Virus record (IMG/VR): IMGVR_UViG_2529292985_000016 | Location: 1 to 10,400 of that record | Reading direction: 5' to 3' (one strand) | Source: a virus | Lineage: Duplodnaviria; Heunggongvirae; Uroviricota; Caudoviricetes | Length of the DNA: 10,400 bases | Part shown: piece by piece, positions 1 to 10,400 of the stretch | Position numbering within the stretch: position 1 is the first letter of the stretch | How the letters are laid out: each line of letters opens with the position of its first letter | Translations under genes and position numbers: made by a program | The notes under the pieces: generated by a model | Database searches by the model: none | Seen by the model: only the letters and a program-made list of their open reading frames with translations | Told to the model about the DNA's origin: nothing

Positions 1-120
1 CTCTTCATACCAGTTTTTTCCGTCTTCCGAAAAAAGCCAGGTGACATCATATTGTTTTGTCAGCTGATATTGTTCCACGGTTTTCGGATTGCCCGCAGTA
101 ATATTTTTTAAATGCAACAT
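1..120 (-). CDS. Tail fibre assembly protein (Tfa), N-terminal 40 codons; gene continues past the left window edge
   Basis: ATG at 120..118 on the minus strand, 2 nt after the tail fibre stop (TAA, 125..123). The frame is open to position 1 and translates [40 protein letters not shown], which resembles from memory the N-terminus of enterobacterial Tfa (P2 gpG / Mu U type) chaperones. Position immediately after the fibre gene is the canonical synteny. Confidence 0.7.
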
Positions 121-122
121 TG

Positions 123-1508
123 TTAAACACTCGCCACGTTATACCAGGTGCCATTAATCAGTTTCTGAAGCGGGCGGTAATACACGCCGTTGACGTTATC
201 CGCTGAGTCACGGCCGGTATCCGATATCGCTATCCCTGACAGCCCGTGTCCCGAAGGTGCGCGAAATCTCCACGAAACGGTGTTACTGCCGGGGCTGTAA
301 TACATTTCATGGCCATACCGTACATCCTGTACCCCCTCTGTTCGATATTTATAGCGGGCATCGAAGTTTCCGTAATTTAACGGAATTACCTGTCCGTTTA
401 CGGCGAACGTGATGCTGTTATCTGTATTCCTCTGGCTGAAAAAATGCCAGCCTGAATCATCGCCAAGCTCTGCAACAACAGACCAGGATGGATTACCCCA
501 CAAATAAAACGCTGCATTTTTCGTGGAGTTGTTGGCGCTGGATAACGTGAATTTTCTGGCAGTTCCGGCCTGAATATTCTTAAAAACAATAGCCACTCCA
601 TTCTGAAAGCGGAATACACGCTGACTATTAGCATAAACATCCAGAATACCGTCTCCATTCTGTTTAAATCCGGTGTCATTATCACCAAGAACAATTGAAT
701 TCCCCCCCAGGGCGTTCTGAACGCCGATACCCAGCGCACCATTGACCTGCGAACCACCGCCAACAGACACTTTATGCGACATGGATATTTCACCCGTCCG
801 CAAATTAATGGTGAACGGGCGCAGGGGACCAATATCGCCATTTTCCCCCTGACCTTCACTGGTGGGAATAAGGTGCAGGCACTCTTCCGAACGACGAAAA
901 ATCAGGCCAAAAGCTTCGTTGAAAATCCTCAGCGCATTAACACCACGGATTTTCAGCTCTCCGGTTATTTTATCGCCTTCCCGATGAACATAGCGTTGAT
1001 CTGACTGCTCTTTACTGTAAACCTGAAGATTATCCCGTGCCGTCCCTTTATTCTGAAGGTCTGACAGATTGTTCTTCTGCCGCAGGAATATCCTTTTCGG
1101 ATCCTCAAGAAGATTTACCCAGCCCGCACTGTCGGAGCCTTCAGGATCGGTCAGGTTATCGTCTGTGGTATTCAGCCAGACCGCTGTTGTTGCGACTCCG
1201 GCGAGAATGGCTCCTTTTGCATATCCACCAATGGCCCCCGCAAAACCGGCATTATACGTGTACAAACCGCCAGCTTGGGCGAACCGTATTGCTGCGGTAA
1301 TATCGTACATCAGACCGTTAAAATCCTTGCCGTGTGGCGGTATACCTCCCGCTGAGACCGCTGTCATGGTCACCGGAGGAAAACCTGAATCATACGCAGC
1401 ATTACCGCTCTCTCTGGTCTGCTGTGTCGCCTTGTCCGGGATACGGTTTTTATCTCCGGTACTCGCAAAGGGGACCGCCAGCTGGCGGGGTTTATCACTG
1501 GCCTTCAT
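123..1508 (-). CDS. Tail fibre protein (461 aa) with a P2 gpH / Mu S-family C-terminal region
   Basis: Intact ORF. Start ATG 1508..1506 is preceded by AAGGAG (1521..1516) with a 7-nt spacer. It overlaps the upstream gene's stop by 14 nt and is followed by the Tfa gene. The C-terminal half contains the block [42 protein letters not shown]...[11 protein letters not shown], which I recall as the conserved C-terminal region of P2 gpH-type fibres. Confidence 0.85.
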
Positions 1509-1820
1509 TACGGGACTCCTTTAAAACTACTGAAACATAAACACCCGGCGGGGACGGCAGTGCACCCGACGACTGGATAATCGCCAGTTCTGCCAACGAG
1601 AGCGCGGACTCAAAGATGTAACTCATCCTCAGCCCACCATTATTCAGAACATAAGCCCGCCGTTTTTTTCCGAACATAAATCTCAGCATCCGGTTAATAT
1701 CCGGAACGGAACAGTCAGTAATGTTCGACATGGCTTTCATCAGTATCAGCCGCCGGTATACAGCATCAGACAGGTCAACAGTCCGGGTATCCGATTTTCC
1801 GTTGTAAAACGGTGCCTGAT
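1495..1820 (-). pseudogene. C-terminal fragment of a baseplate gene (P2 gpI / Mu gp48 position) interrupted by IS2
   Basis: The frame is continuous with the N-terminal fragment at 3152..3436 once IS2 is removed (…PCPFNQ|APFYNGKSD…). Stop TGA at 1497..1495. The six-frame ORF 1495..1848 starts 28 nt inside the IS2 left end, so its first 9 codons (MSGDSGGQS) are IS-derived and artefactual. Confidence 0.75.
1816..1820. repeat. Left copy of the 5-bp target site duplication (CTGAT) flanking IS2
   Basis: CTGAT lies immediately outside the IS2 left end (1816..1820) and is repeated immediately outside the right end (3152..3156). IS2 is known to make 5-bp duplications. Confidence 0.85.
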
Positions 1821-1861
1821 TAGACTGGCCCCCTGAATCTCCAGACAACCAGTATCACTTA
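1821..1861. repeat. IS2 left terminal inverted repeat (IRL)
   Basis: IRL TAGACTGGCCCCCTGAATCTCCAGACAACCAGTATCACTTA aligns imperfectly, with a 1-nt offset, to the reverse complement of the right end TGGATTTGCCCCTATATTTCCAGACATCTGTTATCACTTA. Shared blocks are GCCCC, TCCAGACA and TATCACTTA. Confidence 0.8.
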
Positions 1862-1911
1862 AATAAGTGATAGTCTTAATACTAGTTTTTAGACTAGTCA
1901 TTGGGGTACAG

Positions 1912-2277
1912 ATGATTGATGTCTTAGGGCCGGAGAAACGCAGACGGCGTACCACACAGGAAAAGATCGCAATTGTTCAGCAGAGCTTTGAACCGGGGAT
2001 GACGGTCTCCCTCGTTGCCCGGCAACATGGTGTAGCAGCCAGCCAGTTATTTCTCTGGCGTAAGCAATACCAGGAAGGAAGTCTTACTGCTGTGGCCGCC
2101 GGAGAACAGGTTGTTCCTGCCTCTGAACTTGCTGCCGCCATGAAGCAGATTAAAGAACTCCAGCGCCTGCTCGGCAAGAAAACGATGGAAAATGAACACC
2201 TCAAAGAAGCCGTTGAATATGGACGGGCAAAAAAGTGGATAGCGCACGCGCCCTTATTGCCCGGGGATGGGGAGTAA
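1912..2277 (+). CDS. insC: IS2 transposase OrfA (InsC), 121 aa
   Basis: ATG at 1912 (the listed ORF begins at an upstream GTG at 1867). Translation [56 protein letters not shown]…[16 protein letters not shown] matches IS2 InsC as I recall it. Stop TAA at 2275..2277. Confidence 0.9.
2229..2235 (+). other. IS2 programmed -1 ribosomal frameshift heptamer A_AAA_AAG that produces the InsCD (OrfAB) transposase
   Basis: AAAAAAG at 2229..2235 sits in the X_XXY_YYZ register of the insC frame (codons GCA AAA AAG TGG). The insD frame is -1 relative to insC and overlaps it. This is the known IS3-family mechanism. Confidence 0.7.
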
Positions 2278-3140
2278 GCTTAGTCAGCCGTTGTCTCCGG
2301 ATGTCGCGTGCGCAGTTGCACGTCATTCTCAGACGAACTGATGACTGGATGGATGGCCGCCGCAGTCGTCACACTGATGATACGGATGTGCTTCTCCGTA
2401 TACACCATGTTATCGGAGAGCTGCCCACGTATGGTTATCGTCGGGTATGGGCGCTGCTTCGCAGACAGGCAGAACTTGATGGTATGCCTGCGATCAATGC
2501 CAAACGTGTTTACCGGATCATGCGCCAGAATGCGCTGTTGCTTGAGCGAAAGCCTGCTGTACCGCCATCGAAACGGGCACATACAGGCAGAGTGGCCGTG
2601 AAAGAAAGCAATCAGCGATGGTGCTCTGACGGGTTCGAGTTCTGCTGTGATAACGGAGAGAGACTGCGTGTCACGTTCGCGCTGGACTGCTGTGATCGTG
2701 AGGCACTGCACTGGGCGGTGACTACCGGCGGCTTCAACAGTGAAACAGTACAGGACGTCATGCTGGGAGCGGTGGAACGCCGCTTCGGCAACGATCTTCC
2801 GTCGTCTCCAGTGGAGTGGCTGACGGATAATGGTTCATGCTACCGGGCTAATGAAACACGCCAGTTCGCCCGGATGTTGGGACTTGAACCGAAGAACACG
2901 GCGGTGCGGAGTCCGGAGAGTAACGGAATAGCAGAGAGCTTCGTGAAAACGATAAAGCGTGACTACATCAGTATCATGCCCAAACCAGACGGGTTAACGG
3001 CAGCAAAGAACCTTGCAGAGGCGTTCGAGCATTATAACGAATGGCATCCGCATAGTGCGCTGGGTTATCGCTCGCCACGGGAATATCTGCGGCAGCGGGC
3101 TTGTAATGGGTTAAGTGATAACAGATGTCTGGAAATATAG
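2235..3140 (+). CDS. insD: IS2 transposase OrfB (InsD), 301 aa; expressed as an InsCD fusion by -1 frameshifting
   Basis: ORF of 301 codons with stop TAG at 3138..3140. It contains the IS3-family catalytic-core-like region (…[50 protein letters not shown]…). It overlaps the 3' end of insC in the -1 frame. Confidence 0.9.
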
Positions 3141-3151
3141 GGGCAAATCCA
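3111..3151. repeat. IS2 right terminal inverted repeat (IRR)
   Basis: Imperfect inverted match to the IRL at 1821..1861; the element ends …GGGGCAAATCCA at 3151. Confidence 0.8.
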
Positions 3152-3156
3152 CTGAT
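3152..3156. repeat. Right copy of the 5-bp target site duplication (CTGAT) flanking IS2
   Basis: Identical to 1816..1820. Removing IS2 plus one CTGAT copy rejoins the two gene fragments in frame. Confidence 0.85.
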
Positions 3157-3436
3157 TAAACGGACAGGGATCATCCATTACCGGGGTGTCCATCCTGGAC
3201 TCGCTGAAGCCCAGGTAATTAAAATCGTCCTTTACCGTCAGCCGGCGACTGACACCCACAATCTTTCCCCAGACATCAAGACCATACTTTTCTGCGGTAT
3301 CGATGTTCCAGATAAGACCATAAAAATCACTGATAAAACTGTCGGGGGAAAGCGCTGCGTTAAAGCTGTTAATGAGGGCATTGAGTCGGGGGCTGGCAGC
3401 ATACTGCGCAAGCACAGTGGCAGCCACATTCTGCAC
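3152..3436 (-). pseudogene. N-terminal fragment (95 codons) of the IS2-interrupted baseplate gene (P2 gpI / Mu gp48 position)
   Basis: GTG start at 3436..3434 is preceded by AGGAGG (3448..3443) with a 6-nt spacer and lies 1 nt after the J-like stop (TAA 3440..3438). After codon 95 the frame runs into the IS2 right end, adding a 28-aa IS-encoded tail before a stop at 3065. The reconstructed intact protein would be about 202 aa. Confidence 0.75.
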
Positions 3437-3437
3437 G

Positions 3438-4675
3438 TTATGCCTCCTGGAGTTTCACACTGATATCCGACACATCCAGAACCGGAATCTCATCTATCCC
3501 GAAAGTGACAGCCGTTGTCCATGACGAACCGTCACGGCTCACAGTAAGGCCCAGAATATCAATATGTTCCGGATCGGTTTTGTAAATGCCGGCATAGTAG
3601 CGCCCGGCAGAGACAACAGAGGCAACCCTTGCCCGCAGACCACCATCTGTACCATTAAATGCGTCCAGCACGGATTGCTGTACCTGTCGGGTAATATCTG
3701 AAGGCAGGTAGTCACTTTTTTTCAGCGTCACACTGACATGCAGACTGACGGGTTTGAGTGTCTGCCAGCTGATTACGTATTCAGGATACGGCGGATCGTA
3801 CTCCTTATCTGCAACAGTGAACGTTGTGTTGCCATTCATATCAATACCCGGCGGAGCCTTACGCCAGATGGCCGCCGCGATATCTGCCGGGCTGCCGCCG
3901 TACACGCCAACATAAAGCGAACCGGGTGTTAATGGATACTGACTGACTCCGGCTTTTTGTTCTGTTTTTTTCGGATTATGGGTGACGTAAACATCCACCA
4001 CGTTTTCTACCGTGGAGAGTATTTCACCCCGGATGGCTTCCAGAATATTCCGGGCATTACGGGCAACTGAATTACGTCGGCGGTTTTCAAAGTCCGCACG
4101 GGTTTCCTCATCGCTGCCCGGCACACCGGCACGGGCGTTAGTGACACCTGACCAGCCAGGTATTGCCTTATAAATTTTATTCAGCGTCCCCACAGGACAG
4201 CCGACGGGGCCGGTGGACAAATTCAGAAATACCGCATCAACCTGCCCTGATGCGCCGATAGTGACGTCTGACTGACATACTTATAACCGGCCTCATCCTG
4301 CCCCATACTGCCCGCCGGGATCAGCGTGCCAACCAGCCCGGTACAGGTCGCTGTTACTGTCGTACCTGTGGCCCCACGGCGCTCCAGGAAATAAATCCTG
4401 CCTATTGCATCCTGAAAGCGACCACTGGAAAAGTCAGGGTTGATCTGGTTAACGATATACAGCAACTGATCGTTTTTATCCGCAATAATGGCGCTTTCGC
4501 TGGATGCAAGTTGTCCCTGCGGACTGCTCAGACTGGTACTCATGGCCCCGCCCAGCGCCGCCGAAAAATCAGCAAGCCTGCCGCTCAGAATATCCGCTTC
4601 ATCCGGCACATTCAGCCCGCTATCCGAAATCTGTACAGCGGGCACTGCGGTAGAAAAAGATTTATTTTCACTCAT
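3438..4675 (-). pseudogene. Baseplate J-like protein gene (P2 gpJ / Mu gp47 family), split across two reading frames by an apparent frameshift near 4262-4280
   Basis: The upstream ORF (4223..4675, ATG at 4675 overlapping the preceding stop as ATGA) ends …GYKYVSQTSLSAHQGRLMRYF*. The downstream ORF (3438..4220) has only a TTG start with no Shine-Dalgarno motif, and its frame is open upstream to 4280 (VCQSDVTIGASGQVDAVFLNLSTGPVG…). The two frames overlap at 4226..4280 and read as one J-like protein of about 413 aa if a +1 (or +4) nt change is made. The switch point lies on a TGAC/CTGA tandem repeat (4268..4276). Confidence 0.6.
3443..3448 (-). promoter_or_regulatory. Shine-Dalgarno motif (AGGAGG) for the gpI-position gene
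   Basis: Minus-strand AGGAGG lies 6 nt upstream of the GTG start at 3436 and supports the non-ATG start. Confidence 0.6.
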
Positions 4676-5040: not shown

Positions 5041-5631
5041 TTACCGGGATCCCTGCGTGGTTGAGCCGCCGGACTCAACGCCGCCGTGAACGTGGTTTCC
5101 AAAATCAATACCCCCGATGTTCGAACCGCCGGAAAGCCTGGACTGCCCGGTAACGTCAAGCCCCTTACTGACGGCGGTATCGCCGTTCAGCGCAATTTGT
5201 GGTGAGTTAACGGTGAAGCTTTTCGGCGCATTAATCACCCCCTCAGGCGCGGATATCTCCACTTTCCAGGGAGATACAATCCGTATCTGGTTGTCATCAA
5301 ATACCACAAACTGGACGGGATCACCGTTGAGCACGCCACCCAGCCAGATGGCAAGAAAACCGATATCCCCCACATGTGGCGGGATAATCACCGCATTACC
5401 GCCCCCCTGTAGTCGCCATACGGGAATGTTATAAATCACCTCATGTTCAACCGGGGAACCGTCTGCTGCAACGCCCATTACCATCGGTCGGGCCTCAATA
5501 AATCCCTCTTCCACGGCTACCACCCGTCCCAGAGTGATAAACGCATGACGTCCGAGAAACTGCCGCAGCATAAAGTCCTGTGCATTGATTTCGCTGTTCA
5601 CGTCTGTCGGGTTACTGAGTGGTTGTGCCAT
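5041..5631 (-). CDS. Baseplate central spike protein, gpV-like (196 aa)
   Basis: The C-terminus …SGGSNIGGIDFGNHVHGGVESGGSTTQGSR carries a His-x-His apex motif, as in the P2 gpV spike (HTHKH…GGTTG). Size and position (upstream of the W-position and J-like genes) fit the Mu-type baseplate order. Start ATG at 5631 overlaps the upstream gene by 20 nt. Confidence 0.7.
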   Translation of the reverse strand: MAQPLSNPTDVNSEINAQDFMLRQFLGRHAFITLGRVVAVEEGFIEARPMVMGVAADGSPVEHEVIYNIPVWRLQGGGNAVIIPPHVGDIGFLAIWLGGVLNGDPVQFVVFDDNQIRIVSPWKVEISAPEGVINAPKSFTVNSPQIALNGDTAVSKGLDVTGQSRLSGGSNIGGIDFGNHVHGGVESGGSTTQGSR

Positions 5632-6780: not shown

Positions 6781-7490
6781 CAGGTGATCCCCCTGTTCGT
6801 GGCGCTTCGTCTGTCAGCGTCTGACGGTTGTGTCACCGACGCCGTAACTGGCTGCGTTTTAACCGATGCGGCCCCTTTTGCTTTATCGTTGTCCGTGGGA
6901 GACGACTTATCCGTACTTCCCACTGACACCTCTCCTGTATTCATTACGGTCTGAAATACCGCAGTAACCGTCAGTAAGGTCGGACCATTATTACTTCGCA
7001 TTCGGTAGTCATATTTCACAAGGTCGCAGGATGTCCATGTCTTGTCCGGCGTCTCAATATCGTAGAGTCCTGCCGTGGTACGCATCCTTTCAAGCGTTTC
7101 CAGCACATTCGTCCGCGAGGTGGTGGAAAAATTTGTCAGGTTCGGGACGGATCCGGAAAAGGCCGTCCACCCCTCTACAGTGAAAGTCACATGCAGTTCC
7201 GGCGATCTCTGGATTTTATTAAAGGTGGTATAAGCCCCCTGCTCCACGGGGACGGTGGAAACAGAAGCCTCCGCGCCCACCTCAACGACAACAAAAGAAT
7301 CCGGGGAGAAAGGTTTGCCACCCTTCTGATGGGCACCTGCCGGATCATTCCGTGCGTAATAAATACCGAATGACGGTGCCAGTACACTATTAATGAGTCC
7401 CAGGACACAGCCGCCACGAACTGCACTCAGTACGTTACTTTCACTGAGCGAAAAGTTATTCAGGGAAATATTATCGAAAGAAAAACTCAT
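6780..7490 (-). CDS. Tail protein (236 aa) immediately downstream of the tape measure gene; family not recognised
   Basis: Start ATG at 7490..7488 overlaps the tape measure stop (TGA 7489..7487) as ATGA. The position corresponds to the distal tail / baseplate-initiator proteins of contractile-tail phages. Confidence 0.6.
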
Positions 7491-9508
7491 CCTGTTACCC
7501 CGCTGGAATAAACCGACACAAGCGCCGAATTCGTGATACGCCGACGTGCGTCATCGGTAATACCCTTCACATTGTCCGACGTTGTGGTGACATTCAGTGT
7601 CCCGATATGCGTGGTTTCCGTTACGGTGGACTGCGATACAGGCGCAGGATGGAGCGACCGTATGGCCATTGCCGCACCCGGATAAGGCAGGTTCGCCAGC
7701 ACCCGCGGAATATAGTTGCGGGTCTCCTCCGGAGCAGCAGCCAGTCCCTTACGCTGAACATTTCCCTCTCCACAGTTATATGCCGCCAGAGCCTTAGCCA
7801 GATCGCCATGAAAAAAACGTATCAGGCCACCAAGTTTTCTCGCGGCGGCATCAGCGGCTTTTTCGGGATCAAAGGCATCGTTCCCCCTCAGACCAAATTC
7901 ACTGGCCGTCTTCGGCATGAACTGAAACAGTCCCATCGCACCAGCAGGTGAGACGGCAAACTGATTACCACGGGATTCGGTGATCGCAACGCTGCGCAGC
8001 AGTCCGGGCGGCAGGTTATATTTTTCCTCCAGTTGAGACAGTTTCGGTTGCAGCCAGCCTAACAGGGCTTCCCCGGTCTTCGTCGGTCGCTGGCGGTTTT
8101 GCATGGCATTACCGAGTTTTTCCTGCGTCGCACGCATACCCTGTAGCCAGGATTCACCGAAGGCTGCTTCCCTCCCGGTTGCCTGAGAAGCCTGAGTATC
8201 CAGCATGCCCTGCTGCCATACTGTGGGTGATTGTGCCCGGGTGATGTTGCCAGGCTTTTCTCCGGCATCCAGTTTTGTCTGATACGTCTCCATCTCTTTC
8301 TTATTGAAAAAGAAAGTCCCGTCTGAAGCCCAGAAAAAACCATGTGAATCCAGCCAGTCCTTATTTTCCCTGCCAACAATGGATGTCAGTAATCCGTCAA
8401 CAACCGGGTAAAGCGCCGTTATCGCAAAAAGAAGGCCTCCGGGGCCACTGAGGGCTTTTGTCAGCCCCCGCACCCATGACGCCACTTTCAGCCCGATCAG
8501 CGTAATAATGACATTCTGCCAGCCCCCCAGTTCTCCGGCAGCCTTATTCGCTAGGGAGGCCACTGACTCAACGTCATTCAGAAATGTGGTGATAAACCTG
8601 TTCACTTCCTCCGGATGTTGCTGCATCCAGTCACCGAGTGTCTCCAGCCAGTGGCTGAGCTTCAGCGCGTACGGCATCAACGCGGTGCTAATCGTCATCC
8701 CGATGCCGGACCAGGTCTGATCGAGCTCAACAAGCTCTTTTCGTAGCTTACGGGCCAGCGCTGTACGCCCCGGCGTAACCTGCGAACGGGAAGTAAATTC
8801 GTCCACATCTTTCAGCGCATGACCGGAGCCAAGAAACTGCTGTCCGGCATAACTGAAGCCCAGCGCGTTGCCGTAGGCAGTTTGTTCGGACTTTGTCAGT
8901 CGCGGAAAAATAACCGCCAGCTTGCGCATGATGGCTTCAGTGCTGTCAGTATTTAAATCAACACTAATGCCCGCCCTGGCTGCAACCTGAAACAAATCCT
9001 GTAACACAGGATCAAAGGACCTTCCGGCTCTGAAGGCCGCTTTTGCATTTGCAAGCCGGGAAAATGCCCCAGACATTTCCCCTTCATCAACATTATTTGC
9101 CCGCGCAGCCCGTAACCATCCGTCCAGATTTCTGGCCTTCATGCCAAAAGCATCGGATTCCACGGACAGACGGTTCAGATCACGGGCAAAACCTGTTACC
9201 AGGTTCTTCAGCCCCCCCAGCGTCAGACTGACACCCGCAAGAGCCAGAATCTCGCTACGGATTCCTGAAAAAAAACGGGACGCCCGTTTCCCGGCATCTT
9301 CCATTCGACGGGCCGTTTTATCAGCATCTTTTCCGGTTTTTTCCAGTGATTCACTGGTTTTCTTCTGTCCCTGACTGAATGTGTCAGCGACACCTTCCAT
9401 CACCGTCGTGAGCCGGTTAAGGGCAGCATGTACTGCCTGTTCCCCGGCAGTAAAGTCCCTGTCATCAATCCCGAGGGACAGAACAAGCTCATCAAGTACC
9501 TGCGCCAT
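7487..9508 (-). CDS. Tail tape measure protein (673 aa) with a C-terminal soluble lytic transglycosylase-like domain
   Basis: ATG at 9508 preceded by AGGAG (9520..9516) with a 7-nt spacer. It lies immediately downstream of the chaperone frameshift pair. It has an alanine/charged-rich N-terminal half, a hydrophobic central segment (NVIITLIGLKVASWVRGLTKALSGPGGLLFAITALYPVV), and the SLT motifs …AITESRGNQFAVSPAGAMGLFQFMP…AYNCGEGNV at residues ~505-585. Confidence 0.8.
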   Translation of the reverse strand: MAQVLDELVLSLGIDDRDFTAGEQAVHAALNRLTTVMEGVADTFSQGQKKTSESLEKTGKDADKTARRMEDAGKRASRFFSGIRSEILALAGVSLTLGGLKNLVTGFARDLNRLSVESDAFGMKARNLDGWLRAARANNVDEGEMSGAFSRLANAKAAFRAGRSFDPVLQDLFQVAARAGISVDLNTDSTEAIMRKLAVIFPRLTKSEQTAYGNALGFSYAGQQFLGSGHALKDVDEFTSRSQVTPGRTALARKLRKELVELDQTWSGIGMTISTALMPYALKLSHWLETLGDWMQQHPEEVNRFITTFLNDVESVASLANKAAGELGGWQNVIITLIGLKVASWVRGLTKALSGPGGLLFAITALYPVVDGLLTSIVGRENKDWLDSHGFFWASDGTFFFNKKEMETYQTKLDAGEKPGNITRAQSPTVWQQGMLDTQASQATGREAAFGESWLQGMRATQEKLGNAMQNRQRPTKTGEALLGWLQPKLSQLEEKYNLPPGLLRSVAITESRGNQFAVSPAGAMGLFQFMPKTASEFGLRGNDAFDPEKAADAAARKLGGLIRFFHGDLAKALAAYNCGEGNVQRKGLAAAPEETRNYIPRVLANLPYPGAAMAIRSLHPAPVSQSTVTETTHIGTLNVTTTSDNVKGITDDARRRITNSALVSVYSSGVTG

Positions 9509-10120: not shown

Positions 10121-10400
10121 CAGTTAAAAACCTCCGGAGTAATGGTTTCCCACTCAATAACCGCCTGCCCTGGCTGCAACGTACGAGCTGCATCAGGCAG
10201 CGCTTTCCATTGTTTGAGTACGCCATTCACGCAGGTATATTTACGGCCAATCGCCGGAAGCAGGACGACAGCGTTACAACGGAATACAGCCCGACTGGCC
10301 CGGATGTGGTTGACCAGGTATCAAAAATATCCCGGCTGGGGGAATCCGGCATGATATGAAACGTCTGGATAATGTTGCTGTACACAAATCCCGCGGACAG
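10120..10400 (-). CDS. 3' end of an upstream tail gene (tail-tube position), partial at the window edge; reading frame unresolved
   Basis: One minus-strand frame is open from the window edge down to a TGA at 10229..10227 (…MPDSPSRDIFDTWSTTSGPVGLYSVVTLSSCFRRLAVNIPA*). Another is open from 10320 to a TGA at 10122..10120 that overlaps the chaperone ATG as TGATG (…TLQPGQAVIEWETITPEVFN*) but has no credible start codon. Either the gene ends at 10227 with a 107-bp spacer, or it is frameshifted near 10320. Confidence 0.35.

Follow-up and report, generated by a model that had tools for sequence, protein, structure and literature searches.

Baseplates of the Pseudomonas phage E217 and Pam3 type are encoded by a series of genes whose order recurs in the tail module studied here and in its relatives: a Dit-like protein, a Pam3_gp18-like plug, an E217_GP41-like hub, the spike, a sheath initiator (PF10934), the J protein, wedge-1 (PF11041) and the fiber. 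In the window, by which we mean the whole 10.4-kb stretch of DNA that was analyzed, the sheath initiator gene (Sheath_initiator) lies immediately upstream of J, its stop overlapping the J start by 4 nt, and the wedge-1 gene (Phage_Wedge1) lies immediately downstream. The J position of E217 is held by gp44 ('Triplex gp44', PF04865 family), to which the intact orthologue of our gene is alike, whereas the window copy is a pseudogene that is frameshifted at codon 134/135. Among the matches listed, the sequenced phages closest to the intact orthologue reach only 45-57% protein identity.

Three further systems invite comparison. First, phase variation in Haemophilus and Neisseria classically acts through tetranucleotide repeats that lie within coding sequences. 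As in such contingency loci, the reading frame of the J gene depends on how many copies of a 4-nt unit its coding sequence contains, but here the tract is far too short, has two states only, and these states track phylogeny, which is the pattern of a one-off mutation and not of a switch. Second, decay of the structural genes takes different courses in different lineages in the prophage remnants of EIEC and Shigella that carry ipaH, as it does here. The T3SS effector genes ipaHa and ipaH3 follow directly on the tail module in intact E. coli relatives (10135..11898 in locus L001 and 12539..13242 in locus L002), which indicates an ipaH-carrying prophage; the window itself holds no ipaH gene, and its link to these prophages is by synteny with the relatives only. 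Third, according to two published accounts, IS copies number in the hundreds in S. dysenteriae genomes, and pseudogenes caused by frameshifts and stop codons are very numerous (PMC4445032; PMC8072062). Both kinds of lesion adjoin at this locus, which is nothing different in kind from the frameshift pseudogenes and IS-driven decay of Shigella in general. The literature we found consisted of general accounts of Shigella pseudogenes and IS load only, with nothing specific to this locus. Compared with that general picture of decay, the exact event, a single origin and the order relative to an IS2 insertion can be reconstructed here, as set out below with the coordinates collected in Table 1.

Table 1. 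Parts of the J pseudogene and lesions of neighboring tail genes in the window, with the corresponding positions in locus L001 where these were aligned.
Feature	Position	Strand	Remarks
Baseplate J/gp47 pseudogene, 5' part (ORF1)	4223..4675	-	150 aa, ATG start; from the ORF list and alignment to the intact gene
Baseplate J/gp47 pseudogene, 3' part	3438..4280	-	-1 frame relative to the 5' part, from frame translation; stop at 3440..3438
ORF2 as listed	3438..4220	-	260 aa, TTG start
Residual tetranucleotide tract, site of the 4-nt deletion	4268..4276	-	Two GTCA units plus G; from alignments and the locus census
Wedge-1 (DUF2612), 5' part	3152..3436	-	Matches L001 7244..7528; intact gene 606 nt
IS2	1821..3151	+	1331 bp; from its ends, ORFs and target duplication; inserted in the wedge-1 (DUF2612 / PF11041) gene, next downstream of J
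Wedge-1 (DUF2612), 3' part, beyond IS2	1495..1820	-	Matches L001 7519..7849; PF11041 on remnant ORFs
Central spike gene	5041..5631	-	87-nt in-frame deletion (29 codons), 225 aa to 196 aa
Tail-tube-like gene (E217_Gp32 family)	~10302..10303	-	1-nt deletion, CCC to CC; frameshift

The geometry of the two J-like ORFs bears out the original prediction, which had described them as lying in different frames with an overlap of about 55 nt, and had noted that the downstream one has only a TTG start lacking a Shine-Dalgarno motif while its frame stays open for 60 nt upstream of that codon. Translation of the minus strand, on which the genes of the window run, in three frames places a TAA at 4283..4281, directly after which the ORF2 frame is open from 4280. 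It does reach 60 nt beyond the TTG at 4220 in the upstream direction, and 58 nt (4223..4280) are shared with ORF1. The ORF2 frame is -1 relative to ORF1, and adding one or four nucleotides would thus join the two. ORF1 itself comprises 134 native codons followed by 16 out-of-frame codons (...SQTSLSAHQGRLMRYF) and a TGA stop at 4225..4223, and native coding picks up in the 3' part at ...QSDVTIGASG..., which is identical to residues 135-413 of the intact protein. When the sequence was read directly, no AGGAGG-like Shine-Dalgarno motif was present before the TTG at 4220 or before the GTG codons at 4193 and 4124, the latter two being starts that other annotators picked for the 3' part. Across assemblies, gene callers have chosen five different starts, leading to products of 260, 257, 251, 248 and 228 aa. 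Judged by its sequence, the 3' part has no credible independent start.

Intact relatives of the gene were readily found. A megablast search of complete E. coli genomes identified seven chromosomes that hold the whole J region at 99.0-99.4% identity, and in all seven the match is 1242 nt long against a query of 1238 nt. In the EIEC strain CFSAN029787 (L001) and in strain FDAARGOS_943 (L002), annotation gives a single 'baseplate J/gp47 family protein' gene of 1242 nt and 413 aa for the region, and an uninterrupted ORF of 413 aa is present in L001, L002, L021, L023, L025, L028, L030 and L031. Across the whole gene, the window differs from L001 at four nucleotide positions. At the junction the intact protein reads ...GYKYVSQSDVTIGASGQVDAVF... 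(in the wider stretch ...GYKYVSQSDVTIGASGQVDAVFLNLSTGPVG...), and this equals the junction sequence that had been predicted for a continuous protein upon addition of one nucleotide or one TGAC unit.

Homology runs across the junction in the same way. The Pfam family Baseplate_J (PF04865) matches residues 90-241 of the intact orthologue (99.4% nucleotide identity) with 45.9 bits at a cut-off of 21.1, so that codon 134/135, where the gene breaks, falls within the Baseplate_J domain; the two halves in the window score 14.8 and 18.3 bits, both below the cut-off, over profile positions 6-62 and 81-169, respectively. The intact protein also aligns over residues 16-344 with gp44 of Pseudomonas phage E217 (PDB 8env, 8eon; 8env_J; E=2e-25), without a gap at residues 134-135 and with the SDVTI motif just past the junction conserved. 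Alignment of the halves to intact J-like proteins, which the original prediction had put forward as a check, showed that E217 gp44 and Baseplate_J both cross the junction in the restored frame. Further solved structures matched by the intact protein are 9b45_j and 7kh1_A5. The phage homologues at 45-57% protein identity stem from Pantoea phage PA-1, several Klebsiella phages (prophage-derived) and Edwardsiella and Burkholderia phages, and among the matches listed the protein is a single piece in 14 of 15 records. Megablast found no match to the J gene in the phage collection, where protein-level relatives reach at most 57% identity, and NCBIfam gave no meaningful match for the intact protein or for either half. 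On the strength of these alignments, we take ORF1 and the ORF2 frame to be two parts of one baseplate J/gp47 gene.

The difference between the broken and the intact gene can be pinned to a single short repeat. The frame switch had been placed at 4263..4278, and the plus-strand string gacgtCTGACTGAcat is found exactly there. Within it, the residual tract reads CTGACTGAC on the plus strand and GTCAGTCAG on the coding strand, corresponding to 2.25 units, whereas intact relatives carry GTCAGTCAGTCAG at this position. Alignment to L001 and L002 gives TAT-GTCA-GTCA-GTCA-GAC in the E. coli relatives versus TAT-GTCA-GTCA-GAC in the window, and this one extra GTCA is the sole indel across the J gene, next to a handful of substitutions. 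The indel is a whole repeat unit: intact alleles have (GTCA)3G and the window has (GTCA)2G, and the loss can be placed to this tract as a whole. Loss of one TGAC unit by strand slippage, as originally proposed, agrees with the one extra GTCA of the intact orthologues (99.0-99.4% nucleotide identity). A perfect short tandem repeat that has lost exactly one unit bears the hallmark of replication slippage, and from this repeat context we infer that slipped-strand mispairing during replication is most plausibly the cause of the loss.

The length of the GTCA tract alone is not beyond chance, the window holding nine period-4 tracts of at least 9 nt compared to 7.3 +/- 2.7 in shuffled sequence; what makes the tract meaningful is that relatives carry exactly one more unit. 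The perfect (GTCA)3G tract is confined to E. coli/Shigella alleles, and Salmonella orthologues (92% identity, 413 aa, intact) have the imperfect tract GTCAGTCTGTCAG. A second, longer tract of the GTCA unit is located at 3938..3948 in the 3' part of the J gene (ACTGACTGACT on the plus strand, AGTCAGTCAGT on the coding strand; codons ...GVSQYP...). This tract is unchanged in all loci aligned, which argues that such tracts are not intrinsically unstable here.

We then asked how the two-unit allele is distributed. The exact 150-aa ORF1 product occurs on 150 contigs with the source name Shigella dysenteriae in the protein collection; by position index, 221 blocks of the assembly collection contain it, and at least 16 of these have contigs longer than 1 Mb. 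Ten loci with the exact product (L003-L012) all have two GTCA units, and in L009 (CP026840.1), which is among them, collinearity extends over the entire window. Two variants of the 150-aa product share the same out-of-frame tail and likewise have two units: S. boydii ATCC 9905 and its relatives (L015-L017) carry one of them, a different S. dysenteriae group (L018-L020) the other. A scan of IMG/VR with a pattern that permitted any spacer of 4-24 nt returned 11 contigs, seven with three units, four with two and none with another number, and the same kind of scan on metagenome contigs gave no match. A scan of genome contigs with the single intact protein yielded two loci, in an E. coli and a S. 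flexneri genome (L013, L014), that match residues 180-413 only and are uninformative on the repeat. Besides the window, the census comprises 34 loci, 22 with two units (18 Shigella loci from the protein look-up and the four IMG/VR contigs) and 12 with three; other unit numbers do not occur.

Unit number is congruent with the SNP background. Gene position 300 (window 4376) is T in every one of the 22 two-unit loci, and in the three-unit loci it is C in 10 and T in two (L025 and L031, both intact with 413 aa), a distribution that fits a single deletion on a T background. The two-unit allele is present in three SNP-distinct sublineages, and the window's own sublineage has since acquired a C-to-G change at gene position 374 (Ala124Gly). 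The two-unit allele is a real, inherited lesion. A single origin of the deletion would be the simplest history, resting on one linked SNP and parsimony.

The J gene is not the only damaged gene of the module. The original prediction had also suggested that the tail module is decaying, citing the IS2 insertion, and this view is strengthened by our analysis: the IS2 element is real (1331 bp, with a 5-bp CTGAT target duplication at 1816..1820 and 3152..3156), and two further lesions are present in the tube and spike genes. The element has transposase ORFs of 136 and 301 aa (insC and insD) on the plus strand, and Pfam HTH_Tnp_1 and rve match it in related loci; its length of 1331 bp and the 5-bp duplication are those of IS2, a member of the IS3 family with two overlapping transposase ORFs. 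The sequences flanking IS2 abut in L001 at 7519..7528, and the Phage_Wedge1 gene is split on both sides of the element, with PF11041 on the remnant ORFs in related loci. A second IS2-like copy lies beside IS2 in the related strains L004, L007 and L012.

The tail-tube-like gene begins outside the window, past its right edge; it switches frame at ...TWSTTS/RASRAVF... (the slash marking the switch), and its C-run counts two in L003-L012 and three in L001 and L002. PF22764 matches the Salmonella orthologue of this gene. In L003-L012, an IS1 is situated directly upstream of the tube deletion. The deletion in the spike gene lies between two GCCATCTG direct repeats, with the surviving copy and junction at 5345..5352, and removed the residues CDRDISAVKATRQAAMPGSKRTHNYADAI; among the loci examined it occurs only in the window and in L009. 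Since wedge-1 is intact in L019 and L020, both of which already have the GTCA deletion, the latter predates IS2, and the confinement of the spike deletion to the window and L009 makes it the youngest lesion, after both the GTCA deletion and IS2.

Several observations on other loci and genes accompany these results. The J gene has been broken independently elsewhere: in E. coli O121 (L022, 1501..2562) an internal deletion fuses J to wedge-1, in L013 and L014 the match is confined to residues 180-413, and in L024 there is a separate break further downstream. The middle of the tail fiber gene (123..1508, minus strand) has no nucleotide match to L001 at 706..971, and its C-terminal third (2..706) is about 93% identical to L001, the rest of the module being more than 99% identical; we regard this divergence as the usual mosaic exchange of receptor-binding regions. 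The protein at the tape-measure position (7487..9508, minus strand, 673 aa) is intact in the window and ends in a C-terminal SLT lytic transglycosylase domain (PF01464), and the gene is split into several ORFs in L007 and L009-L012, probably by long-read indel errors in these assemblies.

Taken together, we are highly confident that one GTCA unit was lost, once, from a single J/gp47 gene of a contractile-tail prophage, and that this inactivating deletion has been inherited vertically. In the proposed sequence of events, the C-to-T change at gene position 300 would have arisen first, in an ancestor prophage, and slipped-strand loss of one GTCA from the (GTCA)3G tract would then have occurred, once, on this T background. 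The deletion shifts residues 135-413 to the -1 frame, such that a ribosome starting at the native ATG would read 16 aberrant codons and then terminate. We believe that vertical inheritance in Shigella dysenteriae and S. boydii lineages and divergence into at least three sublineages followed, and that the IS2 insertion in wedge-1, the 1-nt tube deletion and the 87-nt spike deletion were independent lesions nearby. No reversion to three units was seen among the loci examined. Truncation inside a conserved domain, together with the lack of a start signal for the 3' part, points to loss of J function.

Other readings of the locus have to be weighed against this one. We consider it very unlikely that (GTCA)n is a recurrent hot spot, or a low-frequency reversible switch, by which ipaH-carrying prophages repeatedly lose tail expression and particle production but keep their effector cargo, or that the 150-aa N-terminal fragment and the open 3' frame yield a two-piece protein with a residual or new role. 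Reversible phase variation in the strict sense, with the GTCA tract acting as a contingency repeat that turns tail production on and off, would be in line with the occurrence of both two-unit and three-unit states in nature, but the tract has two or three units only, just two states are found in 34 loci, and the two-unit state is found on one SNP background only and unmixed within sublineages. Moreover, with independent breaks elsewhere in the tail module, a J gene switched back on would give no phenotype, and we regard such switching as extremely unlikely.

A functional split, in which termination-reinitiation yields an N-terminal piece of 150 aa and a C-terminal one of about 260 aa that together form a working baseplate protein, likewise appears extremely improbable. 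The TGA of ORF1 (4225..4223) is 2 nt from the TTG at 4220, which could allow some termination-reinitiation, and ORF2 is still without stop codons; yet no Shine-Dalgarno motif stands before the TTG, annotators disagree on the ORF2 start, and a protein broken in this way inside its Baseplate_J domain would lack 19 native residues (135-153), among them the conserved SDVTI. The partner genes are also broken, namely those for the tube and for wedge-1, which adjoins J in the cluster as well as in baseplate wedges of the E217 type, and an open ORF2 is only to be expected of a young pseudogene that differs from L001 at four nucleotide positions.

We attach next to no weight to programmed -1 ribosomal frameshifting or transcriptional slippage as a means of joining both frames into a full-length J protein. 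The -1 position of the downstream frame and the 58-nt overlap have the geometry of genuine -1 recoding sites, but an X_XXY_YYZ heptamer is absent from all of ORF1, and the overlap has no homopolymer of five or more. In addition, relatives of 45% to 99% identity encode J in a single frame, two frames occur in one recent clade only, and the two states differ by the simple deletion of a repeat unit.

Finally, a sequencing or assembly error that hides a third GTCA unit, and with it an intact gene, in the true genome, an option that the original prediction had left standing, can be set aside with near certainty: a 4-nt indel in a short repeat would be a plausible artefact in one assembly, and scattered 1-nt indels elsewhere in L007 and L009-L012 do resemble long-read errors, but the two-unit allele is carried by 18 Shigella loci and four IMG/VR contigs with at least 16 chromosome-scale assemblies, recurs in short-read Logan assemblies of independent runs (DRR015921, SRR1811688) and is shared by three SNP-distinct sublineages, and we know of no sequencing platform for which errors of a tetranucleotide unit are typical.

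With the loss of one GTCA unit as the preferred account, the J locus is an ordinary frameshift pseudogene in a decaying Shigella dysenteriae prophage remnant, and as such not surprising. Its importance beyond annotation is small, and it has no bearing on open questions of baseplate function or recoding. For annotation, the consequence is that one frameshifted baseplate J/gp47 pseudogene should replace the two 'hypothetical protein' ORFs found in many S. dysenteriae and S. boydii assemblies. Together with its linked SNP, the GTCA deletion could be used as a small phylogenetic marker of the lineages in which this remnant is shared, and the locus as a whole provides a clean worked example of how the structural genes of Shigella prophages decay, through slippage, then IS2 insertion, then repeat-mediated deletion.
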